Assembly: GCA_044369475.1 (NCBI GenBank)
Contig: JBIPLV010000020.1
Coordinates: forward strand, 1-23,409
Source: Cyanobium sp.
Lineage (GTDB): Bacteria; Cyanobacteriota; Cyanobacteriia; PCC-6307; Cyanobiaceae
Length of the DNA stretch: 23,409 nt
Reading direction: 5' to 3'
Part shown: in pieces, positions 1 through 18,326 of the stretch
Layout: each line of letters begins with the position of its first letter
Numbering within the stretch: the first letter of the stretch is position 1
Made by a program: the position numbers and the translations under genes
The notes under the pieces: model-generated
What the model saw: only the letters and a program-made list of their open reading frames with translations
Database searches by the model: none
What the model was told of the DNA's origin: nothing

Positions 1-2850
1 ACGATCACGACGCTCCCGGATGGTGCGTTTGGAGAGATCGGATTGCTGGATGCCAATGCCAACAATGCTTTTGTGCCGGTGACGGCAGGACAGCAGCTGA
101 GCCTGGTGCAGATGCAGGGGCTGCAGTTCCGGGCGGCTGCGGATGCCTATGGCCCTGGCACCTTCACCTATGCGGTGAGCGATGGGGCAGCCGCTCAGGG
201 CGGCCTGACGACCACGGAGACCTTCACCATCAATGTGCTGGCGGTGAACGACGCCCCGGTGCGCACCTCGCCGGAGCTCGCGCCGCGTGTGATCAGCAAC
301 GCCGAGTTGGTTGTCGACCGCGCCACCAACCTGTATCAGACGGTGAGCGTTGGTCTGACCAACCTGCTGTTCAGTGCCGGTGGCGACGCCCTCGAGCAGG
401 CGAGCCAGCAGCTCCTTTACCGCATCTCCCGGCTTCCGAATGCCGCCATCGGCCAGATGTTGCTGGCCGATGGCACCGTGGTGCTCAATGGCAACACCTA
501 CACCCTGCCCCAGCTGCGTGATCTGATCTTCAGGCCAGCCCGCGGCGTCGAGACGCTCACGGCTGCCGAACGGCTCGGTGAACTGCGCCTGGAGATGACC
601 GATACCCCGTCGCCGGGAAGTGATCCGGCTCGCACCACGGAGCTCAAGGTGCCGATCCTGATCGACACCAACAAGGCTTCAGGCCGTGCCGGCGTGCGCA
701 TTGCCGGGCTCACCAGCGATGAGCAAGCGATTCAGGCGGTGCTGCGTCTGGATCCCACTAACCCAGACACCGGATTCCAGGATCCTGCCGTTGGCAACGG
801 CAACGGCAACGCCCCCTCAGCTGGCCAGGCCAAGGGGCTCAACACCTCTCTCTACAGCCAGCTGGAAAGCAACAACCCTCTCTATCTGGCGGCCATCGGC
901 GGCAACAAGATTCTTGATGGCCAGGAGGTTAACTACGCGCCTTCAGCGGTGCCATTCCTGTTTGATCTGCCAATCACCGCCTGGACCCCCACCAGCTGGG
1001 CCAAGGGTGGCCCTGATCCCACCCACACCCTGCTGTATCGCTCAACCCTCTCAGGCCAGCTGCGCAGCAACGACGAGCTCACCTACACGGTGATTGATAC
1101 GGTGACTGACCCCGCACCGGCGGGATTCACGCTCTCCAGCAGTGGGGCCTGGAGTTTTGATCCCCTCCATACTGCCTACGCCGCCGGGCTGACCACCGAA
1201 GGGGCCACCCAACAGGTTACCGCGCGCTACATGGCCGGCACCCGCCCGGGCGAGATCACCATCGAATTGCGCCGCACCGCCACCACCGTGATCGCCGAAG
1301 TGGTGGGCAACGTCGGCGCCACGACCACCAGCCGCGGTGATTGGATCGCCGCCAACCCCGAAGGCCGCGACAAAGATCGCTACTTTAAATATGTCTCTGA
1401 ATACGTGCTCACCTCTTACGGTGCGCTCGACACCGGCGAGAGAAACGAGGCTGGCGAGAAGATCTTTGCCTGGAGTGGGCCAATCGAGACCGCTGATGGC
1501 CAGCCGATGCGCCAGCTCGATGGAACCCCGATCACCACGGCTGGGTATTACGACTTCACCCGGCGAGGCGGCGCGGGTGACGGAGTGGAGTTCATTTATG
1601 AATCCATCACCGAGAAAGGCAAGCAAGTAAATTACATTATTGGCATGCGCTTCTTCCTGCGCAACAATGTATTTGGAGATAACGATCCTTCACGCACCAA
1701 CATCCGCGATCCAGGGGCCCCGGTCACAATCCTGCGGGAGCTTGGCGTAATTACGAATATCATGCAAAACGAAATCACTCGAATTGGCGCGTCTTCGATT
1801 GGGGCGTCTTCGATTACCACCATGCCTCTAATCAATGCGCCGTTACTAAATCTGGCGACCACCAACCTCACTCAGCAAAGCATCGCTGCCACAGCCAATG
1901 CGCTCTTGGCCTTAGGTTCAGCTGGCAGCCAATCCAGCGAAGCAACACCTCAGGCCCTTGGAGCCGAGAATGGCAATGGCGCGGGAATTGGCGACAGCAG
2001 CAATGATGGTGCGAATGATGGCGCGGCGGCAGGAGGCCGAGGCCAGGGTGACGGAGGTGACTCCACAAACGACCATCTGGGCAAAGGGGCTGGTGATCGC
2101 GGCCTCAGGCTTGATCCTCAGCTGACGCTGGCCACCATCAACACAGCCCCAGACTCCCTACTAGACAGCCTGAGCGATACGAGCATCCTTGGCGCCAACC
2201 TGCTTGATGCCCTGACGCTCGGAGCGGGTCTCCTGTATCTGCTCTATGGGCCGAGGTCGATTGACCAGAGCAGGCGCGGACTTCGCGGGTGGTTGGCCGG
2301 TGCTGCTAATGCGGGCCGTCGCCCATCCGCAGCTGCAGCAGAGCAGCAGGTGCTGTCCCTGCTGCTAACCCGTCAGAACGATGGATCCCTGAGCATCGTG
2401 GCGGCTCAGATCACCATGAGCGGCGTCAAGCTGCTAGCCCAGCACGATTTGGCATCGGCAGCTGGCGATGAAGCCGCACTTCAACAGGCTCTGAGCGAGC
2501 TGATGACGAACTTGAACCAGAAAGGTGCCCACTACGATCTTCTGTTGCTCGATGGACAGCTTGATCGGGCTGTTAGCGCGGCTGAGCAAAACATTGCCGG
2601 CCTGGCGAAGCAGCGGCTTCCCTTGGCCCCAGCTGAGCTGTCCGCTGCGGTAGCTGCAGCAAGCCCGTCTGAATTTGCCGCCCTTCAGCAGTGGCTCAAC
2701 AAACCGTCTCTGATCCTGCCGCCAGAGTCGCCGGTTGCCCAATCATTGGCGCGTCGTCGTGCGGCCTATGGCCAAATCCTGGCCACTGAGCAAGCACAGA
2801 TGGCAGCGATGATCGAGCTGAGCCTGGCGCTGACCTGGTCCCAACGCTGA
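1..2850 (+). CDS. C-terminal ~950 aa of a very large repetitive secreted/cell-surface protein (cadherin-like/VCBS-type repeats); the 5' end lies outside the window
   Basis: Frame 1 is open from nt 1; the track 'M' at 43 is a TTG, so the gene continues upstream. Two copies of a giant-adhesin-type repeat are present (..LPDGAFGEIGLLD..GTFTYAVSDG..TFTINVLAVNDAPV; ..RISRLPNAAIGQMLLADGTVVL..). An 'AGFTLSSSGAWSFDP' VCBS-like segment follows, then a beta-sandwich terminal motif GDNDPSRTNIRDPGAPV (~1666..1725). After these come a Q/S/A linker, a Gly/Asp-rich stretch (~1961..2103), a hydrophobic helix LLDALTLGAGLLYLLYGP (~2185..2253) and a ~195-aa Ala/Leu/Gln-rich helical C-terminus. Stop codon at 2848..2850. 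Confidence 0.75.
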   Translation, partial: TITTLPDGAFGEIGLLDANANNAFVPVTAGQQLSLVQMQGLQFRAAADAYGPGTFTYAVSDGAAAQGGLTTTETFTINVLAVNDAPVRTSPELAPRVISNAELVVDRATNLYQTVSVGLTNLLFSAGGDALEQASQQLLYRISRLPNAAIGQMLLADGTVVLNGNTYTLPQLRDLIFRPARGVETLTAAERLGELRLEMTDTPSPGSDPARTTELKVPILIDTNKASGRAGVRIAGLTSDEQAIQAVLRLDPTNPDTGFQDPAVGNGNGNAPSAGQAKGLNTSLYSQLESNNPLYLAAIGGNKILDGQEVNYAPSAVPFLFDLPITAWTPTSWAKGGPDPTHTLLYRSTLSGQLRSNDELTYTVIDTVTDPAPAGFTLSSSGAWSFDPLHTAYAAGLTTEGATQQVTARYMAGTRPGEITIELRRTATTVIAEVVGNVGATTTSRGDWIAANPEGRDKDRYFKYVSEYVLTSYGALDTGERNEAGEKIFAWSGPIETADGQPMRQLDGTPITTAGYYDFTRRGGAGDGVEFIYESITEKGKQVNYIIGMRFFLRNNVFGDNDPSRTNIRDPGAPVTILRELGVITNIMQNEITRIGASSIGASSITTMPLINAPLLNLATTNLTQQSIAATANALLALGSAGSQSSEATPQALGAENGNGAGIGDSSNDGANDGAAAGGRGQGDGGDSTNDHLGKGAGDRGLRLDPQLTLATINTAPDSLLDSLSDTSILGANLLDALTLGAGLLYLLYGPRSIDQSRRGLRGWLAGAANAGRRPSAAAAEQQVLSLLLTRQNDGSLSIVAAQITMSGVKLLAQHDLASAAGDEAALQQALSELMTNLNQKGAHYDLLLLDGQLDRAVSAAEQNIAGLAKQRLPLAPAELSAAVAAASPSEFAALQQWLNKPSLILPPESPVAQSLARRRAAYGQILATEQAQMAAMIELSLALTWSQR
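1783..1812 (+). repeat. 15-bp in-frame tandem duplication inside the giant protein gene (IGASS IGASS)
   Basis: attggcgcgtcttcg / attggggcgtcttcg, two adjacent units with 1 mismatch, located in a locally AT-richer patch (about 1620..1900). Confidence 0.8.
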
Positions 2851-2863
2851 GCACCTACCGAGC

Positions 2864-3343
2864 TCAACGGCAGCGCTGGTCGAGAGCGACGATCACCATT
2901 GGTATCGCACGTGGGTGGGATTGCATCGAAAACGCCTCACGCTCAACTTCAAAACTGACAGTTCGGTAGTTCATGTAAAGCAGGCCGCTGATTTCACGCT
3001 CGATCTTGTGGTCAAGATCAATGCTCCAACCAATCGGCTTGAGGCGACCTTTGGGGCAGCCCTGGGCGGCATGCACCGCTTCATGAATCAAGGTGGCGCG
3101 CACAATGCCCAGTTCGATGCTGATCGGTGCAATCCAAATGCGCCGCTTCCTACTATCCGTTAATCCATAGGCACCTTGCAGCGGTGGCTTCTCAAATGTC
3201 ACTCGGTAGCGAGCTCGCTTAAGGGCAGCGAGCAGGGGTTGCAGCTCGACAGGTATCGCTGGTGCAGCAGCACGGGCAACTGGCAGCGACATTGGCAACA
3301 CCAGAAGCAACAGCAGCCGCGTCAACAGAAAAAGAGCGCTCAT
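2864..3343 (-). CDS. Small secreted HExxH protein (putative zinc metallopeptidase-like), last gene of the operon
   Basis: The ATG at 3343..3341 overlaps the upstream stop (caATGAgc). It yields a classic signal peptide, MSALFLLTRLLLLLVLPMSLPVARA/AAP. The motif LIHEAVHAAQGC is of the HExxHxxQ type and is reminiscent of DUF4157-like metallopeptidase domains. The longer ATG at 3403 would lie 64 nt inside the upstream gene and would bury the signal peptide. Confidence 0.55.
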   Translation of the reverse strand: MSALFLLTRLLLLLVLPMSLPVARAAAPAIPVELQPLLAALKRARYRVTFEKPPLQGAYGLTDSRKRRIWIAPISIELGIVRATLIHEAVHAAQGCPKGRLKPIGWSIDLDHKIEREISGLLYMNYRTVSFEVEREAFSMQSHPRAIPMVIVALDQRCR

Positions 3344-4014
3344 TGCACGGTCAGACTCCGGCCGGCAGTGCTCCAGAAGTTGACAGGTTTGTCCGCATAC
3401 CATGGCTCCCAGCCCAGGCGCACACCGTGCTGTTGAGCCTTGGCCTTGATGGTCCGATACACGCTGAAGCCGTCGCTTTCGACCACCACAAAGACGGATT
3501 GCTTGTTGCGCGCCATCGTCGCCATCGTGCGATCAAGCCAGTCGCTGCCACCCTTGAGATCCGCCGCTGCCACCGTGGGAGGGCCCACACTCTGGAGACT
3601 GCCCTGCGTGTGACTCACACGCACAAGGATCGGCCCCACCTGCTGCTGGCGCATCCAGTCATCCAACGCAGCGTTGCACTGCTGCTCAGCCACGCCCTGA
3701 AGAGTCGTACAGCGTTTGACGGCCGCTGCCCGTTCGCGGTCGATCTGCACCATCTGATTGACCGCGGGTTGCAGAGACCAAATCCCTCTGGCATTCGCCT
3801 GCAGCAAATAAAAATCCTGCTGCGACTTACGGGCCATCGGAGCCTGAATGTTGAGGCTTCCAGCCGCCGCAAAGACACTCATCAATGAGGTAATGAGGGC
3901 GAGCACACCAACCACGTTGGTCAGCGTATCGAGCAAGCCGACGTCATCGCTCATAAGCCGCTGACCCTGCTGACGGTGATGCCGTCTCAACAGGAGCAAC
4001 AAAGCATTGCTCAT
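3340..4014 (-). CDS. ExbD/TolR-like membrane protein, paralogue 2 (enlarged periplasmic domain)
   Basis: The ATG at 4014..4012 overlaps the upstream TGA (ccATGAgc). It has a single N-terminal TM with an Asp in ExbD position (VGLLDTLTNVVGVLALITSLMSVF). The C-terminus has an ExbD-like layout (SVFVVVESDGFSVYRTIKAKAQQHGVRLGWEPW). It shares the terminal signature LGWEPW / LGYEP with the neighbouring paralogue. Confidence 0.55.
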   Translation of the reverse strand: MSNALLLLLRRHHRQQGQRLMSDDVGLLDTLTNVVGVLALITSLMSVFAAAGSLNIQAPMARKSQQDFYLLQANARGIWSLQPAVNQMVQIDRERAAAVKRCTTLQGVAEQQCNAALDDWMRQQQVGPILVRVSHTQGSLQSVGPPTVAAADLKGGSDWLDRTMATMARNKQSVFVVVESDGFSVYRTIKAKAQQHGVRLGWEPWYADKPVNFWSTAGRSLTVQ

Positions 4015-4484
4015 GGCATTTCGGCGCCAGACGTCGCTGGCGGTGGCTGCACGGTCCACTGGGGATCAAGAGGCTCATACCCAAGCGTGATGCCCTTGGC
4101 TTCGGCCTGGGAACGCACCAGATGGAACTCGGGATAGGTGCTTGGCTTCACGCCGATCACCAGATACTGCGGTGTGCTGGCTTTGGCGATACGATCCAGA
4201 AAAGCGGCCCATTGCGGGCTCGCAATCGTGGTGCGCTCTTGGCGGCCATCCGCCAATAAATCCAACGTACCGTTCCCCTGCAGCAGCACATAGTTGGCCA
4301 CCTTGCCCTGGTTGTTGCCACCGCTGCCACTGGGGATAAATTGAACAGCCTGTCCACCCGGTTTGATCTGCAGAGCGATAATCCCGATCAACAGAGTCTG
4401 CACACCGATCGTTGCTGCCATGATATTCATGAACGCAAACAGATCAACGCCCACAGTCGTTCTCATGCGAAGTCGGCGTGCCAT
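4011..4484 (-). CDS. ExbD/TolR-like membrane protein, paralogue 1
   Basis: The ATG at 4484..4482 shares 1 nt with the upstream TGA (cgcTGATGgca); the track start at 4499 is a TTG. The N-terminal TM carries the conserved Asp (TVGVDLFAFMNIMAATIGV; compare E. coli ExbD TPFIDVMLVLL). The periplasmic part has the ExbD layout (YLVIGVKPSTYPEFHLVRSQAEAKGITLGYEP). Confidence 0.6.
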   Translation of the reverse strand: MARRLRMRTTVGVDLFAFMNIMAATIGVQTLLIGIIALQIKPGGQAVQFIPSGSGGNNQGKVANYVLLQGNGTLDLLADGRQERTTIASPQWAAFLDRIAKASTPQYLVIGVKPSTYPEFHLVRSQAEAKGITLGYEPLDPQWTVQPPPATSGAEMP

Positions 4485-5776
4485 CAGCGCCAGGGCCAAC
4501 GACGCTGCGGGCGGCTCAGCGGCAACTGTTCAATCCGTTGCAACTGAGCGATCAGCTGTTCGATAGAACGGCGCAACTCAATGCTGGCCTTGAGACTGGT
4601 GAGCTCCTCGCCAAGGACCCCACTGAGGGTGCTGGCACTCTTCAACTCACGCAGCAACGGCTGGAGCTGCTGCAAAGAATGGTTGAGCTCTAGGGCGGCA
4701 CCATCCATGCTGCTACGGATGATCTGGGCTTGCTCCTGCAGACTCAGGCGTGCTTCTGCAACACCCTCCACCGAGTCACGCACCAAAGCAGTGAGTGGGC
4801 TGAGCTTGGCCAGGGCAGCTTCGGTGAGCTGTTCGGCATAACGCTGAGCCGGTGATACCAACACAGAGGGATCGGGGAGGTGCTGCTCAAAAGCGTCGTT
4901 GATCAGGGCCGCGAGTTGACTGGATTGAAGATCGAGAGGTCCCGGCAGTGGAGCACCGGGAGACTCACCCATCGGGCTGAGCACCAGCACCGCATCCCGA
5001 ACGCGACCATCAATGGCATTCAGCAGCTTCTCTTCACGACGCTCGACACCGTTCATGGGTATCGCCAGCAGAACCGAGATCACCAAAGCCAGATAAGTGG
5101 TATCAAAAGCGGTACCCAGTCCGCCAGTCACCTTGGTCAGACCAGCTTTGAGGCCATCGACGTTGTCGGCATTGCCCAACACCCCTTCAAAGGAGCCAAC
5201 AGCCTGAGACATGCCGATCACGGTGCCGATGAACCCGAGGATCGGAATAGCCCACAGCAGCACCCTCACAAGGCTGTAGCTGTTCTGCAGGGCCAGTTGG
5301 TAGAGATCACTGTCTGCATCAGCTGCGCGCTCCAACTGAAACGATGACTGACTCGTTCGCCACACCGACAACAGCCGCAGCAAGCGCTTGCCCACCAACG
5401 ACGACGATTGTTCAGCTCGCTGGGCTGCGGCCTCGATATCACCAGTCCTCAGCAGCGTTGTGATGCTCTGATCGAGCTGTTGCAGTTTGCGCTGCTGTCG
5501 TGCCAGCAACTGCCACTTACTGACCAGAAAGGCGCCAATCATGCCGGCAGCAACCAAACAGACAACCTGGGTTGGGCCGCGCTGGTGCAGGAACAAGTGC
5601 AAGGGCGCACCGACAGGAGACGTGCTCGCCCAAAGCAAAAATCCGATAAGACCACCAATTGCCCCCCAGCGGCTTATGCGGGGATCCAGGTCACTGCCCG
5701 ATCCAAGGTTTGCAGACTCCCCTGGTGACGGGGTCACTGAGGTGGTGTCGGTGAAAGGTGGGAAATTAGCGATCAT
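4484..5776 (-). CDS. MotA/TolQ/ExbB-family ion-channel protein with a long (~175 aa) C-terminal helical tail
   Basis: Family signature helices are present: WAIPILGFIGTVIGMSQAV (compare ExbB APFVGLFGTVWGIMNSF) and GGLGTAFDTTYLALVISVLLAIPMNG (compare GIAEALLATAIGLVAAIPAVVIYN). Hydrophobic segments lie upstream (WGAIGGLIGFLLWA; VVCLVAAGMIGAFLV), followed by a charged loop. After the last TM come a Pro-rich linker and a Leu/Gln/Glu-rich helical tail (about 4487..5011). The first ATG is at 5776; the track start at 5797 is a TTG. Confidence 0.75.
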   Translation of the reverse strand: MIANFPPFTDTTSVTPSPGESANLGSGSDLDPRISRWGAIGGLIGFLLWASTSPVGAPLHLFLHQRGPTQVVCLVAAGMIGAFLVSKWQLLARQQRKLQQLDQSITTLLRTGDIEAAAQRAEQSSSLVGKRLLRLLSVWRTSQSSFQLERAADADSDLYQLALQNSYSLVRVLLWAIPILGFIGTVIGMSQAVGSFEGVLGNADNVDGLKAGLTKVTGGLGTAFDTTYLALVISVLLAIPMNGVERREEKLLNAIDGRVRDAVLVLSPMGESPGAPLPGPLDLQSSQLAALINDAFEQHLPDPSVLVSPAQRYAEQLTEAALAKLSPLTALVRDSVEGVAEARLSLQEQAQIIRSSMDGAALELNHSLQQLQPLLRELKSASTLSGVLGEELTSLKASIELRRSIEQLIAQLQRIEQLPLSRPQRRWPWR

Positions 5777-5811
5777 GGCGCTGAACCTGAGCAACAAGAA
5801 TCAAAAAAGGG

Positions 5812-6156
5812 TCAGCGCTCCTCGCTGCCATCCCACTCCTTCCACTCCACCTCGACATCGCCGAGTTGGCTAACAGCTGGCGGTGGAATCCGGCTGAGCA
5901 GATCGTTGGGGAGACCCAGCCTTTGAAAGACCGACTGGCGCTGCTCCACAGACATCCCAGAAAACGAACGAACCACATCACGAATTCGGTGCTCATTATA
6001 AACTAGCTTCATCAATTCGACCTGATCCTGTGCCTCAAGCTCACGAAACCATTGCATAAAGCGCTCGATCCTGCTTTGCAGATCAGTCGCGGTCATTTCC
6101 GTGGTCTTTTCCATGGTCTTTTCAGTGGTCATTTCAGTGGTCTTTTCAGTGGTCAT
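5812..6156 (-). CDS. Small acidic soluble protein of unknown function with an N-terminal TTEK/TTEM tandem repeat
   Basis: This 114-aa ORF sits between hlyD and the ExbB-like gene on the same strand. It has no TM or signal peptide. The N-terminus MTTEKTTEMTTEKTMEKTTEMT is encoded by a 12-bp tandem array. The remainder looks helical (FMQWFRELEAQDQVELMKLVY..) and the C-terminus is acidic. No family was recognised. Confidence 0.5.
   Translation of the reverse strand: MTTEKTTEMTTEKTMEKTTEMTATDLQSRIERFMQWFRELEAQDQVELMKLVYNEHRIRDVVRSFSGMSVEQRQSVFQRLGLPNDLLSRIPPPAVSQLGDVEVEWKEWDGSEER
6091..6156 (-). repeat. 12-bp tandem repeat, 5.5 units, at the 5' end of the small ORF
   Basis: Plus-strand units GGTC(A/T)TTTC(C/A)(G/A)T at 6091, 6103, 6115, 6127 and 6139, plus a half unit at 6151..6156. 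The array is in frame and generates several in-frame ATG codons. Confidence 0.9.
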
Positions 6157-6218
6157 TGGCGGTATTCCTGATGAGAAGATGAGGGAGAGCTAGGAAGCAT
6201 TTGGCACACGAGTGAGTT

Positions 6219-7367
6219 CTATTCGCTATTGGAGCGAATGCGTCGTAGAGAATCAAACATCTTGTCAGTAGCATCAGTTAGCAGTGTGATCACGCGCTTC
6301 TCGCGCAGAATTAGATTCACTTGCACGCTCTGGCCAGAGCTCACAGGAAACCGTTGGGATCCCCGGCTCAGATAATCGCGATCCAGCTTCACGTAGGCCG
6401 GAAAGCGTGGTTGGGGGTTTTGCTCGTCGGGAGGCAATGGCAGGGTTCCAATCATTTTGAGCGAGCCTGAAATGGATCCAAACTGGGTGAATGGAAAGGT
6501 ATCAACTCGAATCTGGGCCGGCATGCCCTGCTTCACAAAGCCCACATCCCGGTTGCTGAGATAGACCTTGGCTTCCAGAACCCCACCAGGCACAATCTTC
6601 GCCAGGGTTTCACCAGCGCTAGCGGCATAGCCAGGGCTGGAGGGCACCAGGCCAAACACCACCCCTGAGAGCGGTGCTCGCAGCACCTCCTTGTCCTGAG
6701 TATCCCTAACCTCGGTCAGCTGGCGGTCGAGGTCGGCCAGCTCCCGCAGCGATTCTTGCTTCATCTTCAGGAGCTGGGCTTCAACCTCCTGAAGGTTGGA
6801 TCGCGACTGAGCGATTTCGGATTCCAGCTGCTCAACCTTGTTACGCTGCTGCAGCAGCTGCAATTTCTGGATGCCGCCCTGGGAGGCGAGGGGGGCGATC
6901 TGGCTATAGATGAGTTTTTCAGTGCGAAGCAGCCGCGTTAAACCATCAGTGCGCTCCCTCAGACTTTGGGCTTTGGCTTCGATTGAGCGAGTCTCTTCAT
7001 TAAAACGGGTGCGCTCAAGCTGAATCTGTTCCCTGAGGGTGTCGGCCCGCTTTCCGGACACGTCGGGATCAAGCCGCAGTAGCTCCTGATTAGCGCTGAC
7101 CTGCTGGCCCTCCCTGACAAGAATTTGCTTCACAACCCCAGCAAAAGGAGCCTTAATCGGCCGCTCAGCACCCAGCGGCTGTAGCTCACCAGGAGCGAGC
7201 ACCACTTCATCTATTTTGGCAAAGATGGCATAGATGAAAGCCAAACATGCCGTACCGATGATGGTCCAGATCAGAGCCTGACTCCAAACAGGGGTGGGCT
7301 TGAGTCGCACCTCCTGAGGATTGACTGGTCGGACCGTCAGAGCTGAGCTCATCGCTTTGTTGGCCAT
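6219..7367 (-). CDS. HlyD-family membrane fusion protein (T1SS periplasmic adaptor)
   Basis: It has an N-terminal TM (WSQALIWTIIGTACLAFIYAIFA) and a lipoyl/hairpin entry (APFAGVVKQILVREGQQVSANQELLRLD). A long coiled coil follows, then a beta-barrel C-terminus (VLRAPLSGVV..; MPAQIRVDTFP). The ATG lies 3 nt after the ABC gene stop. Confidence 0.9.
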   Translation of the reverse strand: MANKAMSSALTVRPVNPQEVRLKPTPVWSQALIWTIIGTACLAFIYAIFAKIDEVVLAPGELQPLGAERPIKAPFAGVVKQILVREGQQVSANQELLRLDPDVSGKRADTLREQIQLERTRFNEETRSIEAKAQSLRERTDGLTRLLRTEKLIYSQIAPLASQGGIQKLQLLQQRNKVEQLESEIAQSRSNLQEVEAQLLKMKQESLRELADLDRQLTEVRDTQDKEVLRAPLSGVVFGLVPSSPGYAASAGETLAKIVPGGVLEAKVYLSNRDVGFVKQGMPAQIRVDTFPFTQFGSISGSLKMIGTLPLPPDEQNPQPRFPAYVKLDRDYLSRGSQRFPVSSGQSVQVNLILREKRVITLLTDATDKMFDSLRRIRSNSE

Positions 7368-7370
7368 GGC

Positions 7371-10300
7371 TCAGCCCACCTCCTGCTGGTGATAGAGGGT
7401 GGCGTAGCGCCCGTCGAGCTGCATCAGCTCCGTGTGGTTGCCGATCTCCACCAACATCCCCTGATCCATCACCAGAATCATGTCTGCATGACGCAGGGAG
7501 GCCAGCCGGTGGGTGATAAAGCACACGGTCTGGTTCTGGTAAGCCTCCTTCAGGTTGGCGGTCAAGCGTCGTTCAGTGTCCACATCAAGAGCACTTGTTG
7601 CTTCATCAAGCACCAGGAGGCGAGGTTTACGCAGAATCATGCGCGCGATCGCGAGCCGTTGCCGCTGGCCGCCACTCAAGCCCGCACCCCTCTCACCCAC
7701 GGAGCTGGTGTAGCCACCCGGCATGGCCTGAATGAAATCGTGGGCGCATGCGATCTGGGCTGCTTGGCACACGTCCTCAAAGCTGGCATCGGGCCGAGTC
7801 AAGGCGATGTTGGAGAGGATCGAGCCGTCAAACAACAGACTGTCCTGGGGCACCACACCGATCTGGGCCCTCAGAGAATAAAGATCAACCTTGCTGATGT
7901 CGTTTCCGTCGATGCGGATCGTGCCCTCGAGTGGTTCGTAGAGGCGCGTAATCAGCTTCAACAAAGTGCTCTTGCCAGAACCGCTGCTGCCCACCACGCC
8001 CACAAATGATCCCGCGGGGATCTTGAAGTTGATATTGCTAAGCTGAAGACCGCCCTGGCTGCCAAAACGAAAGCTCACACCGTTGTATTCCACTTCTCCC
8101 AAAATTGGGGGAATGGGCGGTTTCTGTTCTCCCATGATTTCGAGCTCTTCGGGATAATCAACAATGTCCGCAAGGCGCTCGAGCGAAAGGGCTGTTTCCT
8201 GGAAGTTCTGCCAGAGGTTGGCCAACCGCAGCAGTGGATTGGTGACATAACTAGCCAGAATTCGGAAGGCAATCAGCTGCCCGAGGGTCAGCTCACCCTT
8301 GAGCACCAGCGAGGCTCCCACCCAGAGCACCAGCAGGCCGGAAAGTTGCTCCAGAAACTGGCTGGCTGAGCCCGCCGCCGTGCTCGTGATCACATTGCGG
8401 AAGCCTGACTGGATCTGACTTCCATACAGTTGCTGCCAGCGCCAGCGGCTGTGCAGCTCCATGCTCTGACCCTTCACCGTTTCCATACCGCCCAGAGTCT
8501 CAACCAGATGGCTCTGCACCCGCGCGTTGGCCTCGGCCTGATCGCGCAGCTGCTTGCGAATCAGTGGCGCGCTGAGCAGGGTCACACCCACGAAAAATGG
8601 CACCACAGCCAAAGCCCAGAAGGTGAGCTGAATCGAGTAGAGAAGCATCACGGCGATGTAGATCACCGCGAACACAGCATCAAGGATCACGGTGAGCGCC
8701 GTACCCGTCAGGAAGCGGCGGATCTTCTCAAGCTCATTGATGCGGCTACTGACCTCTCCAACCGGCCGATCAGCGAAGTAGCCGAGCGGCAACCGCAAGA
8801 GGTGATCAATGATCGTCGCCCCCAGGGTGATATCGATGCGGTTCGTCGTATCCGAAAACAGATAGGTGCGCAGCGAGGCCAGCACTCCCTGAGCCAGGGC
8901 CATGCCCACCAGCAAGGTGCCAAGCACATTGAGGGTGCTGATGTTGCCCTGGCTGATTACAGCATCGATGATTTGCTGAATCAGCAGAGGATTCAGCAAG
9001 GCAAACAGCTGCACAAAGAAGCTCGCCACCAACACCTGCACCAGCACGGCCTTGTGCTGTTGCAGAGCCGGCAGGAACCAGGCCAGGCCGAAGCGCTTCT
9101 TTGGGGTGCGAGCGCTGCGCTCGACACACAGCACATCGAGCAGGTTGTCGTCATTCCAACCTGTCAGGGATCGGGCCGCCACCAATCCCTGGCCGGCCAC
9201 AGGATCACCCAGCATCAGCTGACCGCTTTGATCAATCTCCCAGATCACCACCGGTCCACTCGTGCCCAGAGCCAGCGCAGGCAAGGGCAGGCGTCTGAGC
9301 TGTGTTTCATTGACCTGCATGGGTGAGGCCCGCAGCCCCATCAGATCGGCGATCGCCGCCAACTGCAGCAGCCCGATGCCTTGGCCCTGGCTGTCGCGCG
9401 CGAGCTGGTCTTCAAGGATGCGGCGAAGCACATCGCGCCTGAAAGGGAGGTCAAATTGCCGGGCCAACATGCGCAGACAAGCCAGCGGCACGTCCACCGG
9501 CCCTTCACCGCTGAGGTGGGGGTAGCTTCCGTCGTCCCCAAGGCGGCCATACCAATCTTCAAGAGCCTGCTGCTGTTGCTCGATCGCCACAATTGCGGTC
9601 GAGCTCTCCTGCCAGTCAGGTTCGAGCAGTTCAGCTTCAGCAGGCTGGGCATCCCGTGCGCCAGCGTCTGGTGACACCACCAGTGCAGCAGGTCGTGCGA
9701 TGGGCGGGCTCGCAGCCTGTTTGGCTAGAAGCCGGGCCGGCAGTTTCCCGCGCACATGGAGTTTGAGCGGACCCAGGATTTCCTCGCCGGGCTTGAGCCC
9801 CGCCACGTTGCTGCTGCTCAGCAACCAGGGCCCCCAGTCAGCATCAAAGCTGTGCTCCCCGGGTGGAACCAGCAGAACCTGTTGACGTTCAGAGGATTCG
9901 GTGAGCTGGTTGCTCGCCCAGTCGCGCAGAACCAACCGCTCCGGGGTACGCGGCGAGGGGCTCGCAGCGGCAACGGCATACAACTCCTCGAGGTTGGGCT
10001 GTGCAAGGGCTCGCGACAGCACCTCATCAGCGGATACGGCTTCGAGAAATGTGTGCTGAGGCATCAGCCACAGCTGGCTGGGCAGGGCAGCAGCCACGGC
10101 CTGCCCGGTGACCCCGCGCAGCAACCCCACCTGGCCCACCATGTCGCCAGGGCCGAGCCGCTGCAAAGTGAACGGCTCGTTGCGTTCATCGAGACCCAAT
10201 AGTCTGAGTTGGCCCTGAGCGACCAGGGCGACGCCGGGCGGAAGCGCGGCGTAGTCATAGAGCTTCTGGCCAGGGCGCAGCTTCAGGGCTTGCAGAGAAT

Positions 10301-10394
10301 CGGCCAGCTGCGCCTGCGTCGTTTCGGGTAGTTGAGAAAACGGTGCCCACGCCCTCAGGACCCGAAGGGCCAAAGTGAGTTGCAGCGGGGGCAC
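7371..10394 (-). CDS. T1SS-type ABC exporter (1007 aa): N-terminal cNMP-binding-like domain, C39-like domain, 6-TM domain and NBD
   Basis: Walker A GVVGSSGSGKSTLLKLI, signature LSGGQRQRLAIARMIL, Walker B LLVLDEATSALD and H-loop FITHRL are all present. The N-terminus has a beta-roll of cNMP-binding type (LRPGQKLYDY..GVALVAQGQLRLLG..LGPGDMVGQVGLLRG). The C39-like segment is PVDVPLACLRMLARQFDL. The start codon is GTG at 10394. Confidence 0.92.
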   Translation of the reverse strand: MPPLQLTLALRVLRAWAPFSQLPETTQAQLADSLQALKLRPGQKLYDYAALPPGVALVAQGQLRLLGLDERNEPFTLQRLGPGDMVGQVGLLRGVTGQAVAAALPSQLWLMPQHTFLEAVSADEVLSRALAQPNLEELYAVAAASPSPRTPERLVLRDWASNQLTESSERQQVLLVPPGEHSFDADWGPWLLSSSNVAGLKPGEEILGPLKLHVRGKLPARLLAKQAASPPIARPAALVVSPDAGARDAQPAEAELLEPDWQESSTAIVAIEQQQQALEDWYGRLGDDGSYPHLSGEGPVDVPLACLRMLARQFDLPFRRDVLRRILEDQLARDSQGQGIGLLQLAAIADLMGLRASPMQVNETQLRRLPLPALALGTSGPVVIWEIDQSGQLMLGDPVAGQGLVAARSLTGWNDDNLLDVLCVERSARTPKKRFGLAWFLPALQQHKAVLVQVLVASFFVQLFALLNPLLIQQIIDAVISQGNISTLNVLGTLLVGMALAQGVLASLRTYLFSDTTNRIDITLGATIIDHLLRLPLGYFADRPVGEVSSRINELEKIRRFLTGTALTVILDAVFAVIYIAVMLLYSIQLTFWALAVVPFFVGVTLLSAPLIRKQLRDQAEANARVQSHLVETLGGMETVKGQSMELHSRWRWQQLYGSQIQSGFRNVITSTAAGSASQFLEQLSGLLVLWVGASLVLKGELTLGQLIAFRILASYVTNPLLRLANLWQNFQETALSLERLADIVDYPEELEIMGEQKPPIPPILGEVEYNGVSFRFGSQGGLQLSNINFKIPAGSFVGVVGSSGSGKSTLLKLITRLYEPLEGTIRIDGNDISKVDLYSLRAQIGVVPQDSLLFDGSILSNIALTRPDASFEDVCQAAQIACAHDFIQAMPGGYTSSVGERGAGLSGGQRQRLAIARMILRKPRLLVLDEATSALDVDTERRLTANLKEAYQNQTVCFITHRLASLRHADMILVMDQGMLVEIGNHTELMQLDGRYATLYHQQEVG

Positions 10395-10424
10395 TTCTGC
10401 TGTGAAACAAAGTTCGGTGGCACC

Positions 10425-11153
10425 TTAAAGGACTTGTCGCGATTCGGGCGGAATGACGTCTTGATTCAACAATTGATATCCCAGCTCCAGGAGAAGTCTT
10501 CTGCGCATCTGTTGATCGAGGATGGCAGGCTTGCTCTCTTCAAGCCGAACAAGGATCCAGCCCTGCTGAATCGGCTTGGGGGGCCAGAGCTGGCCGGGCT
10601 GGCTCACCCGCAGCAATTGAGCTAACCCCTCTGGCAACTCCGACAGGGCGACAGGTCCCTGCTCTCCTCGGGGGCCGAGGTCGGGCTGAGCTGGTAGCTG
10701 TTGCAACAATGCCTCAAAACTAATTTCGCCTTCTTTAATCTGCATGTAGAGCTCCGAGCAGAGCTCCTGCTCAGCAATCGGCAGAACTGTGTAAGTCACT
10801 TCATCAAGGTCTTTCTTCCGCTGAAGGAAATAGCTCGCCAGTTTTTTGCCAAAATGCTGCTCGCACACCTGCAGCCAGAGGTGATGGCGCCGGGCACGGG
10901 TCACGAGCTCGGCCTCTCCAACACCCTCCTGCAACATCCATTGCTGCACGGCTGCTGGTGCATGGAGTCCAAGATCGGCCAGGTAGACCTGAACTTGAGC
11001 CGCAAGCTCCGCTTCACTGAGGGACTCGACTGAGCCAACAACGTCGGCTAGCCAGCGCTGGCGTTTCAGCTCAAGCTGCACCCGCCCCGCCAGGCCAAGC
11101 GCTTGCAAGAGTTCCATCGACAAGGCTGTCGAAGATGCTGAGGATTGGCTCAC
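10425..11153 (-). CDS. Parvulin/PpiC-type peptidyl-prolyl isomerase-like protein (cyanobacterial T1SS-associated type)
   Basis: The C-terminal half fits a parvulin layout (YTVLPIAEQELCSELYMQIKEGEISFEALLQQ..GPVALSELPEGLAQLL..PGQLWPPKPIQQGWILVRLEE). No signal peptide is seen. From memory, similar genes sit next to cNMP/peptidase-domain ABC plus HlyD pairs in cyanobacteria. The start is GTG at 11153; an alternative ATG is at 11117. Confidence 0.5.
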   Translation of the reverse strand: MSQSSASSTALSMELLQALGLAGRVQLELKRQRWLADVVGSVESLSEAELAAQVQVYLADLGLHAPAAVQQWMLQEGVGEAELVTRARRHHLWLQVCEQHFGKKLASYFLQRKKDLDEVTYTVLPIAEQELCSELYMQIKEGEISFEALLQQLPAQPDLGPRGEQGPVALSELPEGLAQLLRVSQPGQLWPPKPIQQGWILVRLEESKPAILDQQMRRRLLLELGYQLLNQDVIPPESRQVL

Positions 11154-11174
11154 TGGCAGTCACGGCGGGTCCGG

Positions 11175-12191
11175 TCAAGCAACCAGATACCCCTCCAGCA
11201 TCCGCGATTGGGCCCGCACCCCCTCGAGCGCCTTGCGCTCCAGGTTGCGCGTCTTGTCCCGGCTCATGCCCAGATCCTTGGCGATGGCGCTGAGGCTCAT
11301 CGGTTCGGAGCGGCCCGGAGCCTGATCGCAGGGGATGCCGTAGCGCATCTTCAGCACCCGACCCTGCAGCTCCGGCAGCTGCTCCAGCAGTGCCCGCAGA
11401 TCTCCTTTCAAACACTCCCCATCCACCAGGTCCTCCGGCAGCTCCGCATCGCCCGCCAGCAGGTCCAGCAGCTCGGTGTCGTCGCCATCGCCCACCTTCG
11501 TCTCCAGGCTCACCGGTTGCCGCGCACGGCACAGCAGGTCCTTCACCTCCTCTTCCGGCAGCTCCACCGCTTCCGCCAGTTCCGTCACCGTCGGGGTGCG
11601 CCCCAGCAGCTGGCTCAGTTCCCGCTGACCCTTCTTCAGCTTGTTGAGCGTTTCGGTGATGTGGATCGGCAGCCGGATCGTGCGGCTCTTCTCCGCAATC
11701 GCCCGTGTGATCCCCTGCCGGATCCACCAATACGCATACGTCGAAAACTTGTAGCCCCGCGTTGGGTCGAACTTCTCCACCCCACGCACCAAACCAATGG
11801 TCCCCTCCTGGATCAGGTCCAGCAGCTCCATGTTCCGCCGCGTGTACTTCTTGGCCACGCTCACCACCAGCCGCAGGTTTGCCGCCACCATCCGCTCCTT
11901 GGCCCGCCGACCCGCCTGCAAACGCTTTTTCAGCAGTGGTGCACTCAGCCCCGCCGCCTGGGCCAGTTCCGCCTGGCTCGGCTTGCTCCCCATCCGGCTC
12001 TCCAGCTCACCCTCCAGCTCCTCCAGCGCCACCAGCTCCTGCACCTGACGCCCCAGCGTGATCTCCTGCTCGTGGCTCAGCAGCGGCACACGCCCGATGT
12101 CACGCAGGTAGCTGCGCACCAGATCGCCGCCGCCCTGAGCCGAGGAGCTTTCCGAGCCTGAACTGGAGCCAAGAACGGGCAGGGCGGGCAT
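11175..12191 (-). CDS. RNA polymerase sigma-70 family factor, group 2 (RpoD/SigA-like)
   Basis: Region 1.2 [24 protein letters not shown], region 2 [61 protein letters not shown], region 3 [16 protein letters not shown] and region 4 [23 protein letters not shown] are all present. At 338 aa it is too short for the primary sigma factor. Confidence 0.95.
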
Positions 12192-12203
12192 GGGGAGGGG
12201 CGG

Positions 12204-12227
12204 TTACGAAACTCTTTTGTTTCGTAA
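12204..12227. promoter_or_regulatory. Perfect 9-bp inverted repeat with a 6-nt spacer in the divergent sigma / pseudouridine synthase intergenic region
   Basis: TTACGAAAC (12204..12212), tctttt, GTTTCGTAA (12219..12227). It lies 13 nt upstream of the sigma ATG (12191) and 28 nt upstream of the + strand ATG (12255). It is AT-rich relative to its surroundings. Confidence 0.45.
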
Positions 12228-12254
12228 ACCTACCATTTTTTCCCACACGGCAGC

Positions 12255-12989
12255 ATGGGAGCCATGGCTCTTGAACGCCTACAAAAACTGATGGCCGCCG
12301 CCGGCCTCTGCTCGCGACGGCAGGCCGAAACCCTGCTGCGCCAGGGCCTGGTGCAGGTGAACGGCGCCGCGGCCCAGCTGGGGGACCGGGCTGACCCCGA
12401 GCGTGACCGGATCACGGTGCGGGGCGAGCCCCTGGCGGCCCGACCGGAGCCGCTGCTTCTGCTGCTCAACAAGCCGGCCGGCGTGGTCTGCAGCTGCCAC
12501 GACCCTGAGGGGCGCCCCACGGTGCTCGACCTGCTGCCAGCCGACCTGCAAAACGGCTGCGGGCTGCACCCGGTGGGGCGCCTCGACGCCGAAAGCCGCG
12601 GCGCCCTGCTGCTCAGCAACCAGGGCGACCTCACCCTGCGCCTCACCCACCCCCGCTACGGCCACCGCAAGACCTACCGCGTGTGGGTGCAGGGGCGGCC
12701 TGATGCCCCAACGCTGCAACGCTGGGCCGCCGGCGTCCCTATCGACGGCCAGGCCAGCCAGCCGGTGGGGCTGCAGGTGCTCAGGCGCACGCCCCAGACC
12801 ACCGAACTGGAGCTGCGGATGAGGGAGGGGCGCAACCGCCAGATCCGCCGCACCGCCGCGCTGCTCGGGCATCCGGTGCGGGATCTGCAGCGGCGGGCGA
12901 TCGGCCCCCTACAGCTCGGCGACCTGCCTGAGGGGCGCTGGCGGCGCCTCGATCGCCAAGAATGGGCAGCACTGGCAACCCAACCCTGA
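12255..12989 (+). CDS. S4-domain pseudouridine synthase, RsuA/RluB/RluF family
   Basis: An S4 RNA-binding N-terminus (ERLQKLMAAAGLCSRRQAETLLRQGLVQVNG) is followed by the catalytic motif HPVGRLDAESRGALLLSNQGDL and a C-terminal GRNRQIRR. Confidence 0.9.
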   Translation: MGAMALERLQKLMAAAGLCSRRQAETLLRQGLVQVNGAAAQLGDRADPERDRITVRGEPLAARPEPLLLLLNKPAGVVCSCHDPEGRPTVLDLLPADLQNGCGLHPVGRLDAESRGALLLSNQGDLTLRLTHPRYGHRKTYRVWVQGRPDAPTLQRWAAGVPIDGQASQPVGLQVLRRTPQTTELELRMREGRNRQIRRTAALLGHPVRDLQRRAIGPLQLGDLPEGRWRRLDRQEWAALATQP

Positions 12990-13888
12990 CCCGCACCCCC
13001 CAGCTGCCACCCAAGCACCCGCGGGGCCGCCTCGGCCGCTGGTGGCGGCGGGATCCCCTGCCGGCCGCCAACGCTGCGGCGGAGCCGCCGGCCGATCCGC
13101 TGCTGGCGATTGGGCGGCAGCTGCGGCAGCGGCGGGAGGAGCGCGGTCTGACCCTGCGGCAATTGGCACTGGACACCCGCATCAGCACGGCGGTGCTGGA
13201 GGCCCTCGAGCGGGGCTGGCGCGACCGGCTGCCGGAGGCCACCTACCTGCGCACCATGGTGCCGCTGATCGAGCGGCACCTCGACCTGCCCGCCGGCAGC
13301 CTGGAGCCGGTGCTGCCCGACAGCGAACGGCTGCCCCAGGACCAGCGGCGGCAACCGCTGCTGCGACGCTTCACGCCGGGCTCCATCGATGTGTTCACCA
13401 GCTGGCAGGGCACGCTCCTCTACGGCGTGCTCACCCTGGGACTGGTGTATGTGCTGAACCTGCAGCAACAGCAGCTGGCCCTGCGGGGTCTGCTGGCGGT
13501 GCGGCCGATTCCGCCTCTACCGGCGCAGGAGCTGGCCAAGCCGCCGCGGCCCGAAGAGGCCTTGCTGAAGCTCTATCCCGAGCTGCGGCCCCTGGAGCAG
13601 GCCGCCCGAGGGAAGGGGGTCAGCCAGCTCCGGCGCACCAAACCCGCACCCATGCTGCGCACAGGGCTGCTGGAGCTGGAGCTGAGCGAGCCCAGCCAGC
13701 TCAATCTGGAGAGCGCCAGCGGGGTGCGCACCAGCCTTCGCAACGCCAGCGGCAGCCTCAGCCTGCCCCTCAGCGGCGGGTTCCGTTTGCAGGTGCAGCC
13801 GCCGCCAGGCCCCGGCGATCGACTGAGCTGGAATGGGATGCCACTCCAGCCCGTGAAGGGGCAGCCCGGCAGCTTTGCCCGGCCTTAA
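12962..13888 (+). CDS. RodZ-like HTH (XRE-type) membrane protein
   Basis: It has an HTH (IGRQLRQRREERGLTLRQLALDTRISTAVLEALERG), a single TM (LLYGVLTLGLVYVLNL) and a Pro-rich external region. It overlaps the preceding gene by 28 nt; the start is uncertain. Confidence 0.6.
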   Translation: MGSTGNPTLTRTPQLPPKHPRGRLGRWWRRDPLPAANAAAEPPADPLLAIGRQLRQRREERGLTLRQLALDTRISTAVLEALERGWRDRLPEATYLRTMVPLIERHLDLPAGSLEPVLPDSERLPQDQRRQPLLRRFTPGSIDVFTSWQGTLLYGVLTLGLVYVLNLQQQQLALRGLLAVRPIPPLPAQELAKPPRPEEALLKLYPELRPLEQAARGKGVSQLRRTKPAPMLRTGLLELELSEPSQLNLESASGVRTSLRNASGSLSLPLSGGFRLQVQPPPGPGDRLSWNGMPLQPVKGQPGSFARP

Positions 13889-13897
13889 GCCCAGGCC

Positions 13898-15397: not shown

Positions 15398-16653
15398 GCT
15401 TCAGGCAGCCGGTAGCGGCTGATGATTGCCTGGGCGAAGGCCGGGATGTGAGCCGCCACCTTCTCAGGGTGATTGCGGCGCAACCATAAGGCGTTGCGGG
15501 TGAAGTGGGAGTCGATCGAGAAGCGGCCGTATTCCAGGCCCTTCGGCCCCAGGCGCCCCACCACACAGCCAATCAGGTTGGCCAGCCAGAGGGGCAGCTT
15601 GACGGCCTTGTCGTAGGCCTCGATGCCCTGCTGCACCGCTGCCTGGCGGTTGCCGCTGCTGGTCACCGGCGCCACATCGAGCTCGCTCTCCACCAGATCC
15701 AGCAGCACCTGACCCTTGGGGTTGCGCACCGTGAGCCATTGGCGCCCAAACGTCGCGCCCATGTAGCCCACCACCAGATCGGCGCCGGCGTTGGTGTAGT
15801 CGAAGCAGCTCAGGCAACTCGGGGCAAACACGTCCTTGAGCTTGGGCGTATCGAGCCCGAAGAAGGGCACCGTTTCCTCGCGGCCGTCGCTGTGGCGGAA
15901 GTGGATGCGGAAGTCCTGCATGAACTCGTAGTGCACCACCGTCTCGGGCGAGCTCACCGTGCTCTCCAGGAAGGTCTGCAACCCGGCCCGCGAGACGTTG
16001 TCAACGCAGGGCAACCCCAGCACATAGAGCGCGTCGAGGGGCAGGGTGGACTGCACCGCCCGCAGGGCCTGGATCTGGCAGCCCACACCGATGGCCAGGA
16101 GCGTCTTGATGCCGCTGCCCGGCAGCTGCTCCAACACCTCCAAATTGGGCGAGAGGGTGGGCTTGTTCACCCGGGCGCTGAGCACCTCCTCCGGCGTGCG
16201 GGCCAGCCGCGGCACCGGCGTGAAGCGATCTTCGTCGCTTTGGCCTACGCACAGCACCGCATCCACCAGGCCCGTTTCCAGGGCGCGCACACCGATGCGG
16301 CTGACAATCCCGGTCCACTGGGCGCCGTCGATCGGCTGGTCCAGGCGGGCGGTCAGCATGCGCTGCTGCACACCGAAATACAGCTCGTTGTCGTTGTTGA
16401 GATCGCGGCTGCGGCCATGGGCCTGCTCCTCCATCGCCTCAAAGCGCTGCTCGAGGAAGGCGCAGCTCTCCTTCACATAGGCCACCCAGCGGCTATCGCA
16501 CAGACCGCACTGGCTGCAGAGATCCTTGGCTGGATACACGCCACCCTTGGCCAGGGGTCGGGCTCGCTCGTGGGGCGCCAGCACGGGGGAAGAGCCACTT
16601 AACGAAGACAGTGCTGCCATCAGCGGGTTCCCTCGCCCCATCAGCCAGGGCAC
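15394..16653 (-). CDS. FrhB-family (coenzyme F420 hydrogenase beta-like) Fe-S flavoprotein; BciB divinyl reductase / HCAR-like
   Basis: It has an N-terminal Cys cluster (CSQCGLCDSRWVAYVKESCAF), a GVGCQIQALR motif and LGLPCVDN. Size and layout fit the cyanobacterial FrhB homologues (the Slr1923/BciB family). The start is uncertain: GTG at 16653, or ATG at 16641 or 16620. Confidence 0.7.
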   Translation of the reverse strand: MPWLMGRGNPLMAALSSLSGSSPVLAPHERARPLAKGGVYPAKDLCSQCGLCDSRWVAYVKESCAFLEQRFEAMEEQAHGRSRDLNNDNELYFGVQQRMLTARLDQPIDGAQWTGIVSRIGVRALETGLVDAVLCVGQSDEDRFTPVPRLARTPEEVLSARVNKPTLSPNLEVLEQLPGSGIKTLLAIGVGCQIQALRAVQSTLPLDALYVLGLPCVDNVSRAGLQTFLESTVSSPETVVHYEFMQDFRIHFRHSDGREETVPFFGLDTPKLKDVFAPSCLSCFDYTNAGADLVVGYMGATFGRQWLTVRNPKGQVLLDLVESELDVAPVTSSGNRQAAVQQGIEAYDKAVKLPLWLANLIGCVVGRLGPKGLEYGRFSIDSHFTRNALWLRRNHPEKVAAHIPAFAQAIISRYRLPEA

Positions 16654-16753
16654 AACCTATCGGGTGCCAGCCGCAGAGGCGAGGTCCCACCAGGGTGTTC
16701 AAACAGGGGAAGCCCGGCAGGTGTAGGCCAAAGTGTGTTGCCGCCCAGCCCCG

Positions 16754-18258: not shown

Positions 18259-18326
18259 GGATGTTTGCACTAGGGGGGCGGGCACGCTTCTACGATCGGA
18301 TTTCAGCCGACGCGTCCGCGCCCGCC

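Follow-up and report, generated by a model that had tools for sequence, protein, structure and literature searches.

A TolQ/ExbB-like protein and two asymmetric ExbD/TolR-like paralogues as a probable motor module linked to type I secretion in picocyanobacteria

The window analysed here, a stretch of 23,409 nucleotides from Cyanobium sp. (assembly GCA_044369475.1, contig JBIPLV010000020.1), carries two adjacent minus-strand genes for short single-pass membrane proteins, referred to throughout as X1 (4011-4484) and X2 (3340-4014), which directly follow a gene for a TolQ/ExbB-like protein. Together with this protein, the asymmetric X1/X2 paralogues probably constitute a conserved three-gene motor module that assists secretion in picocyanobacteria, whose giant surface proteins are thought to be relevant to grazing defence and motility. 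X1 and X2 represent a widespread ExbD/TolR-like family that has no Pfam or NCBIfam model and occurs as obligate pairs behind a TolQ/ExbB-like gene. The main interest lies in this unannotated family, in what would be a naturally asymmetric plug, and in its presence in ecologically major cyanobacteria.

Results

X1 and X2 are conserved and overlapping paralogues

A first-pass annotation, made from the DNA sequence alone, had described X1 (157 amino acids (aa), ATG at 4484) and X2 (224 aa, ATG at 4014) as two ExbD/TolR paralogues that might form a heteromeric motor plug. Both open reading frames (3340-4484), the peptide strings quoted for them and the TGATG and ATGA overlaps were verified from the sequence, and the gene calls are further based on homologues. 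The stop codon of the upstream MotA-like gene shares a single base with the start codon of X1 at 4484 (TGATG), the X1 stop overlaps the X2 start at 4011-4014 (ATGA), and a third overlap, again ATGA, joins the X2 stop to the start of the next gene, which encodes an HExxH protein (3340-3343). As the first-pass annotation had noted, each protein has a basic N-terminus and one hydrophobic segment. The strings VGVDLFAFMN and KGITLGYEP occupy residues 11-20 and 130-138 of X1; VGLLDTLTNV, RCTTLQGVAEQQC and HGVRLGWEPW occupy residues 25-34, 101-113 and 196-205 of X2.

X1 and X2 are conserved real genes and not chance open reading frames. Homology searches at E<=1e-3 yielded 115 cluster representatives of X1 and 216 of X2, all of them from picocyanobacteria or metagenomes. 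Every named entry is a "hypothetical protein", and no Pfam domain was found in any of the 115 and 216 representatives. Invariant across the alignments are GYEP of X1 (4071-4082), GWEPW of X2 (3400-3414) and both cysteines of X2.

The transmembrane helix of X1 spans about residues 11-40 (15-38 in the AlphaFold2 (AF2) model; predicted local distance difference test score (pLDDT) 66). In this model a linker of ~20 residues connects the helix to a periplasmic beta-beta-beta-alpha-beta-alpha-beta-beta domain that ends in GYEP. The N-terminus of X2 is 9 residues longer than that of X1, its conserved C-terminal tail reads FW.N.GR..TVQ, and it carries an insertion between the transmembrane segment and the core domain. 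This insertion had been put at ~80 aa; the hhalign gaps (12 + 45) give ~57 aa, located roughly at residues 58-123 (3646-3843), and the two proteins differ in total length by 67 aa. The periplasmic domain of X2 was modelled with a pLDDT of about 85-95, the insertion being predicted to form a beta-hairpin (68-80) and two helices (82-103 and 108-118). On these two helices sit the cysteines already pointed out in the first-pass annotation, C102 (3709-3711) and C113 (3676-3678), which are invariant in a 28-sequence alignment and are the sole cysteines in 106 of 118 full-length X2 orthologues. A periplasmic disulfide between C102 and C113 is likely.

Profile-profile comparison by hhalign aligned X1 and X2 colinearly over the transmembrane segment and the C-terminal domain (87%, P 4e-6), and X2 aligned with the wider X1 family described below over its C-terminal 72 residues (98.2%, E 3.6e-14). 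By these alignments X1 and X2 are paralogues, as had been proposed.

The canonical transmembrane aspartate is restricted to X2

An Asp at the ExbD/TolR proton-relay position had been assigned to both proteins, and this holds for X2 only. In the hhalign comparison with the ExbD alignment, family position 14 corresponds to ExbD N19 and position 20 to ExbD D25; in the X1/X2 alignment, X1 N20 (4425-4427) lies opposite X2 D29 (3928-3930). X2 thus has its Asp at the position of ExbD D25 and TolR D23, and X1 has an Asn there with an Asp six residues earlier (D14, 4443-4445). Conservation follows the same division. Among picocyanobacterial orthologues, X2 D29 is Asp in 112 of 112 sequences, while X1 position 20 is never Asp (0 of 104) and is Asn in 99; X1 position 14 is Asp in 67 of the same 104 and Ser in 37, so that D14 is replaced by Ser in 36% of the orthologues. 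The transmembrane Asp is therefore conserved in one paralogue and not in the other.

A comparable picture was obtained for 78 paired loci. Every X2 that aligned had an Asp at the canonical position, and the acidic residue of X1 was found at position 14, at position 20, or was absent. At secretion-linked loci with an aligned X1, position 14 was Asp in 27, Asn in 10 and Ser in 3, and position 20 was always Asn. In distantly related trios of a TolQ/ExbB-like gene, X1 and X2, position 20 of X1 is Asp where position 14 is non-acidic; another large group of distant X1 proteins has Glu at position 14 and Ser or Ala at position 20, and a few are non-acidic at both. Of 98 members of the wider family, 31 have an acidic residue at position 14 alone and 22 at position 20 alone; 2 carry one at each position, and 43 have none at either.

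Conservation of the canonical Asp in X2 alone argues that the paralogues are functionally unequal, X2 being the constant Asp-bearing subunit. Two independent homodimeric plugs can hardly account for this pattern, which would fit either a plug mixed from X1 and X2 or one made of X2, with X1 in an accessory role; the asymmetry strengthens the idea of a heteromer and does not lessen it. In the accessory arrangement, X2 alone would form a homodimeric plug (ExbD2/TolR2-like), and X1 would dock outside the pentamer like TonB or TolA and relay force. A canonical Asp that is never found in X1 but is present in every aligned X2 of the paired loci, together with the loss of any acidic transmembrane residue from X1 in about one third of orthologues, is in keeping with such a role, and an operon that has no separate TonB- or TolA-like gene requires some component to transmit force. 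X1, however, has a transmembrane motif (LF.F..I...IGV) and a periplasmic domain in common with X2 and ExbD, lacks the architecture of TonB or TolA, and has a linker of ~20 residues that is too short to span the periplasm; moreover, the canonical Asp in X1 of distant trios points to an ancestral location in the pore. We consider a purely peripheral X1 possible, though unlikely, and favour the mixed plug.

Further polar residues are invariant in the transmembrane segments of the picocyanobacterial proteins, namely N20, T25 and Q29 (4398-4400) in X1 and D29 and N33 (3916-3918) in X2. The position of X1 Q29 is mostly Leu across the wider family. These residues may offer a polar route, peculiar to this lineage, that makes up for the Asp lost from X1.

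X1 and X2 are distantly related to ExbD and TolR

To define the wider family, a hidden Markov model (HMM) of X1 orthologues was searched against 1.84 billion representatives, which retrieved 336 proteins at E<=1e-3. They are single-pass proteins of about 145-280 aa with the consensus ..(V/I)SLFPFLDIL...IGVL.. followed by ..VRPxG..F...R...I.(I/V)GYEP. As a reference for ExbD/TolR, the E. coli ExbD and TolR sequences were aligned with ten plasmid-borne ExbD genes. When the family was compared with this reference by hhalign, it matched ExbD/TolR with 92.8% (P 3.9e-7). The match covers 111 columns, beginning at the juxtamembrane segment and reaching the periplasmic domain's second helix, and it pairs the family motif LFPFLxIL with TPFIDVM of ExbD. 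A split test placed both parts in an identical register, with P 2.8e-5 for the one close to the membrane and P 0.02 for the periplasmic one. ExbD/TolR chains also accounted for 5 of the 15 weak matches of the wider-family profile in the PDB. Structure prediction lent some support, in that the top fold match of the X1 model (pLDDT 66) in the PDB was E. coli TolR (5by4; E 2.2e-3, prob 1.0; TM-score 0.41 normalised to the query and 0.58 to the target).

No similarity was detected between the wider family and MotB (P 0.19); Pfam revealed no OmpA or MotB domain in X1 or X2, and the top-ranked fold matches included neither MotB nor SiiA structures. A MotB-like reading of the pair was dropped for lack of similarity to MotB. 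An RNase-H/integrase-like fold for X2 came up only in weak fold-search matches, which we treated as noise.

The upstream gene encodes a TolQ/ExbB-like protein

The gene preceding X1 (4484-5797, minus strand) codes for a MotA/TolQ/ExbB-family protein that matches Pfam PF01618 (MotA_ExbB) with E 1e-10 and 41.9 bits (cutoff 22.9), in agreement with the ExbB-like pentamer that the first-pass annotation had assumed. The open reading frame comprises 437 aa from a TTG; the start is probably the ATG at 5776, which gives 430 aa as in the closest homologues. Comparison by hhalign yielded P 1.3e-4 for TolQ, 4.6e-4 for ExbB and 0.011 for MotA, which by sequence places the protein nearer to TolQ/ExbB than to MotA. 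Its transmembrane motifs read GFIGTVIGM and AFDTTYLAL. T192 (5222-5224) aligns with ExbB T148 and T234 (5096-5098) with ExbB T181, and T192, T233 and T234 are invariant across 18 diverse homologues.

The protein ends in a helical C-terminal tail of about 170 residues, which is the cause of weak matches to ZorA and to apolipoprotein-like proteins; the profile searched against the PDB returned only apolipoprotein-like helices, all from the tail. ZorA of the Zorya system likewise belongs to the MotA family and ends in a long helical tail, and the weak match to it (E 4e-4) covers the shared domain. In contrast to ZorB, X1 and X2 have neither a ZorB match nor a peptidoglycan-binding domain, and the context is secretion instead of defence. 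With PADLOC reporting only weak ZorA-domain matches, no ZorB and no ZorC, ZorD or ZorE genes, a Zorya reading was dropped.

The three genes are embedded in a conserved type I secretion operon

A metagenome scan provided 80 further loci, which were annotated with purpose-built HMMs. In every picocyanobacterial locus with enough flanking sequence the operon has a constant order: PpiC-like protein, ABC transporter, HlyD, small protein, MotA-like protein, X1, X2 and HExxH protein, followed by a convergent cargo gene. The linkage of the pair to type I secretion and a giant protein, proposed from the window, thus extends across the picocyanobacterial loci. Synechococcus NB0720_010 (PMC9387257) has the same operon, adjoined as in the window by genes for a sigma factor and a pseudouridine synthase, and its convergent cargo is a cadherin-like protein of 10,749 aa. 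The operon recurs in marine Synechococcus MIT S9452 and in the single-cell genome AG-670-A05, where the cargos measure about 1,334 to at least 1,787 aa. Throughout the related loci X1 and X2 are always adjacent and usually overlap, and they directly follow a MotA/TolQ/ExbB-family gene in >70 loci, distant lineages included.

The window contains no TonB, and no TonB- or TolA-like gene was found in it, in the orthologous loci or beside the sampled distant trios, as the first-pass annotation had anticipated for tonB. TonB-dependent receptors were likewise absent from the window and the related loci examined. These results bear on an alternative in which the trio would be a conventional ExbB-ExbD1-ExbD2 Ton motor, serving TonB-dependent uptake and associated with the secretion operon by location only. 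The same order of motor genes is indeed known from Ton systems of Xanthomonas, Stenotrophomonas and Sphingobium, but besides the missing TonB and receptor, X1 and X2 fail the ExbD profiles, and the gene overlaps and the invariant synteny with ABC, HlyD, HExxH and cargo genes recur in dozens of loci. A Ton uptake system is scarcely credible, and we dropped it because of the absence of TonB and receptor and the fixed synteny with secretion genes.

The presumed cargos vary widely in size across loci (about 1,334 to 10,749 aa) and end in a C-terminal module of ~270 aa (about 1951-2850 of the window, plus strand) with 33-38% identity across loci; the same module lies at L001:11218-12117, L009:11213-12112 and L011:11434-12333 of related loci. 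It contains a Gly/acid-rich stretch, RKRGLLLQP and a hydrophobic, transmembrane-like NLLDALALGAGVLYALYAP segment (pattern NLLDALxLGAGxLY), and its conserved end reads ...EQASMASLIELSxALGWS (wider pattern ...EQAxMAxxIELSxALxWS). Five metagenome loci (L033, L034, L035, L037 and L047) have two tandem cargo genes, each ending in the module. Type I secretion substrates do not usually carry a membrane-like helix so near their C-terminus; it may be the element recognised by the transporter or the motor.

Outside the picocyanobacterial clade, some distant trios adjoin genes for FGE-sulfatase-domain proteins and Ser/Thr kinases, and one lies directly upstream of a gene for a 2,860-aa beta-helix/cadherin/lectin protein (distant-trio loci: L025:6130-9142, L027:8008-11517 and L095:7511-19299). 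At L027 both plug paralogues have long coiled-coil insertions and the canonical Asp.

Assignment of X1 and X2 as motor components

Several findings weigh against a secretion-assisting motor with an X1-X2 plug. Pfam and NCBIfam searches at a permissive E<=0.1 matched neither X1 nor X2 to ExbD, an outcome that had been named beforehand as speaking against their ExbD/TolR identity. A sub-threshold Pfam ExbD match (E 0.002) was obtained for only 1 of 69 members of the wider family, and profiles built from picocyanobacterial X1 or X2 sequences alone did not match ExbD/TolR. The X2 model had no significant fold neighbour in the PDB, TolR ranking 41st with E 0.17, and the X1 model is of moderate confidence only. 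The link to ExbD is carried mostly by the short juxtamembrane and transmembrane motif. Furthermore, at distant loci, where X2 identity is 21-36%, the trio is kept and the secretion genes are absent; since the motor genes occur there without type I secretion, the trio is not intrinsically a secretion accessory. Finally, the X1-X2 heterodimer, as well as a tie of the motor to the HlyD protein or the cargo, is something we infer.

In the same direction, no remote trio member matched the ExbD profile, and the picocyanobacterial profiles gave only noise against PDB sequences. The claim of an ExbD-like identity thus failed at the level of curated profiles and held as a remote relationship, through the wider family and the predicted TolR-like fold of X1. 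We conclude that X1 and X2 belong to the ExbD/TolR superfamily as a remote branch that lacks annotation; the support is better for X1 than for X2.

If the likeness to ExbD/TolR were convergent or too weak to be meaningful, X1 and X2 could instead be lineage-specific single-pass accessories for assembly or anchoring. The absence of direct profile matches, the marginal similarity of the periplasmic domain taken by itself (P 0.02) and an X2 fold without a significant neighbour would all agree with this, but it would leave aside that a MotA/TolQ/ExbB-family gene always precedes the pair, in more than 70 loci and in distant lineages, that the invariant transmembrane Asp of X2 stands exactly in the register of ExbD D25, and that TolR is the single best fold match for X1. 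We regard such a non-motor role as improbable and retain the plug assignment. The neighbours of the distant trios are unrelated genes, e.g. for RuvA, TenA, HisF and glycosyltransferases. The trio thus forms a self-contained module of old origin, whose fusion to type I secretion is specific to the picocyanobacterial clade.

Further genes and composition of the island

The eight closely packed minus-strand genes of the operon run from 11153 to 2864 and converge with the plus-strand gene for the giant protein, which ends at 2850. The first gene (10425-11153) encodes a PpiC-type rotamase-like protein of 242 aa with weak Rotamase_2 and TIGR04500 matches and a conserved position. It is followed by the gene for an HlyB-type type I secretion ABC transporter of 1007 aa (7371-10394) with the Pfam domains ABC_membrane, ABC_tran, cNMP_binding and Peptidase_C39, which scores 686 bits (E 5e-206) against TIGR01846, under the cut-off of 725.55 bits. 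The cyclic-nucleotide-binding domain lies at the N-terminus of the transporter, ahead of the C39-like domain, an arrangement that hints at regulation of export by cyclic nucleotides. The HlyD-family periplasmic adaptor for type I secretion (382 aa, 6219-7367) was recognised by Pfam HlyD_3 (E 9e-21) and by NCBIfam TIGR01843 (E 4e-49, under the curated cut-off). Between the HlyD gene and the motor genes lies a gene for a small soluble protein of 114 aa (5812-6156), for which no Pfam or NCBIfam family match was obtained.

Downstream of X2, the minus-strand gene at 2864-3343 encodes an exported protein of 159 aa with a signal peptide and the HExxH motif HEAVH; its similarity to DUF6782 metallopeptidases is weak and sub-threshold (E 4e-4). 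The gene is found downstream of X2 in other picocyanobacterial loci as well. By analogy, and speculatively, the protein could process or release the giant protein in a LapG/Lap-like manner. Of the giant repeat protein, the presumed secretion cargo, the window holds the C-terminal 935 aa (43-2850, plus strand), with hints of tandem-95 and Big_9 repeats in Pfam and NCBIfam.

The remainder of the window, from 11.2 to 23.4 kb, carries housekeeping genes (sigma factor, pseudouridine synthase, MalQ, PRPP synthetase, aminopeptidase N). The G+C content is 54-64% in the island of secretion, motor and cargo genes (1-11150) and 65-72% in the flanking core genes (11150-23409). A scan of one genome per species recovered five genuine loci, which makes the island a sporadic accessory element. 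The contrast in G+C content and the patchy distribution among species suggest that it is horizontally mobile. A candidate locus from Limnocylindrales (L012) was rejected because its short GWEPW string had matched by chance in a frame that is not coding. The pattern-based genome scan did not recover WH8102, and literature text searches for the SYNW095x loci returned nothing relevant.

Discussion

To our knowledge, the idea of a proton-motive-force motor attached to the type I secretion of a giant adhesin has so far rested on Salmonella SiiAB. The present findings extend it to abundant aquatic phototrophs. As in SiiAB, a MotA/ExbB-family protein and an Asp-bearing single-pass partner are co-operonic with a type I ABC transporter and its adaptor, the operon adjoins a gene for a giant repetitive surface protein, and TonB is not involved. 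SiiA, on the other hand, is a single plug with a MotB/OmpA-like peptidoglycan-binding domain, whereas here two unlike plug-type proteins with TolR/ExbD-like domains show no similarity to MotB; the host is a picocyanobacterium, and the operon also encodes PpiC-like, small soluble and HExxH proteins. SiiAB, which is counted among the 5:2 motors (PMC12204202), is a MotAB-like proton channel of Salmonella SPI-4 that is accessory to the SiiCDF type I secretion of the giant adhesin SiiE; its proton flux depends on a transmembrane Asp, SiiA D13, and the part that the proton-motive force plays in secretion is unexplained (10.1101/641415).

With ExbD and TolR (PF02472), X1 and X2 share the N-in single-pass topology, a predicted beta-alpha periplasmic domain and the position of their genes immediately behind a TolQ/ExbB-like gene whose channel threonines are conserved; the transmembrane motif P-F-(I/L)-D-(V/I)-(M/L) is shared by X2 and many members of the wider family. 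They differ from the plugs of the Ton and Tol-Pal 5:2 motors in remaining under all curated thresholds, in forming an unequal paralogue pair in place of a homodimer, in the Asn at the Asp position of X1, in the 57-aa insertion and C-terminal extension of X2, and in the absence of a TonB, TolA or Pal partner.

The arrangement of one TolQ/ExbB-like gene followed by two different TolR/ExbD-like genes is shared with AglR-AglQ-AglS of Myxococcus and with the ExbB-ExbD1-ExbD2 Ton systems. Secretion coupling thus has a precedent in SiiAB, and paired plug genes have theirs in AglRQS and ExbB-ExbD1-ExbD2. The paralogues of the latter two systems score as ordinary ExbD/TolR members; X1 and X2 are far more divergent, and one member alone always keeps the Asp. 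Those systems, moreover, drive gliding or TonB-dependent uptake, while the trio described here is linked to type I secretion in its picocyanobacterial clade. Paired plug genes imply a heteromeric or alternative plug in AglRQS and ExbB-ExbD1-ExbD2 (review PMC13104615).

We propose that a pentamer of the TolQ/ExbB-like protein would surround one X1 helix and one X2 helix, in a 5:1:1 stoichiometry. X2 D29, facing T192 and T234, would serve as the proton-relay residue for ion flow, and X1 would be a degenerate partner in which the acid was shifted or lost. The TolR-like periplasmic domains could pair through their shared GYEP and GWEPW strands, leaving the extra hairpins of X2, probably stapled by the disulfide, as a unique docking surface that might bind the HlyD adaptor, the C-terminal module of the cargo, the HExxH protein or the cell wall. 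By this coupling to the secretion system, the proton-motive force would most likely be used toward export, retention or release of the giant surface protein, as in SiiAB/SiiE.

Many genes now listed as "hypothetical" could be annotated as motor parts on the basis of this family. The asymmetry of the Asp, in addition, makes the pair a natural experiment on whether one Asp is enough to drive a 5:2-type motor.

The swimming of Synechococcus is still mysterious (PMC13104615). It is conceivable, though very doubtful, that the island goes beyond help in secretion and is a version of the engine by which giant surface proteins are moved or put under tension during non-flagellar swimming of Synechococcus or another surface motility; nothing found here ties the module to the motile clade III strains. 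The idea is based on the occurrence of a TolQ-like motor, an asymmetric plug, a secretion system, an HExxH protein and a giant protein in one island. The 10,749-aa cargo of NB0720_010, moreover, equals SwmB in size.

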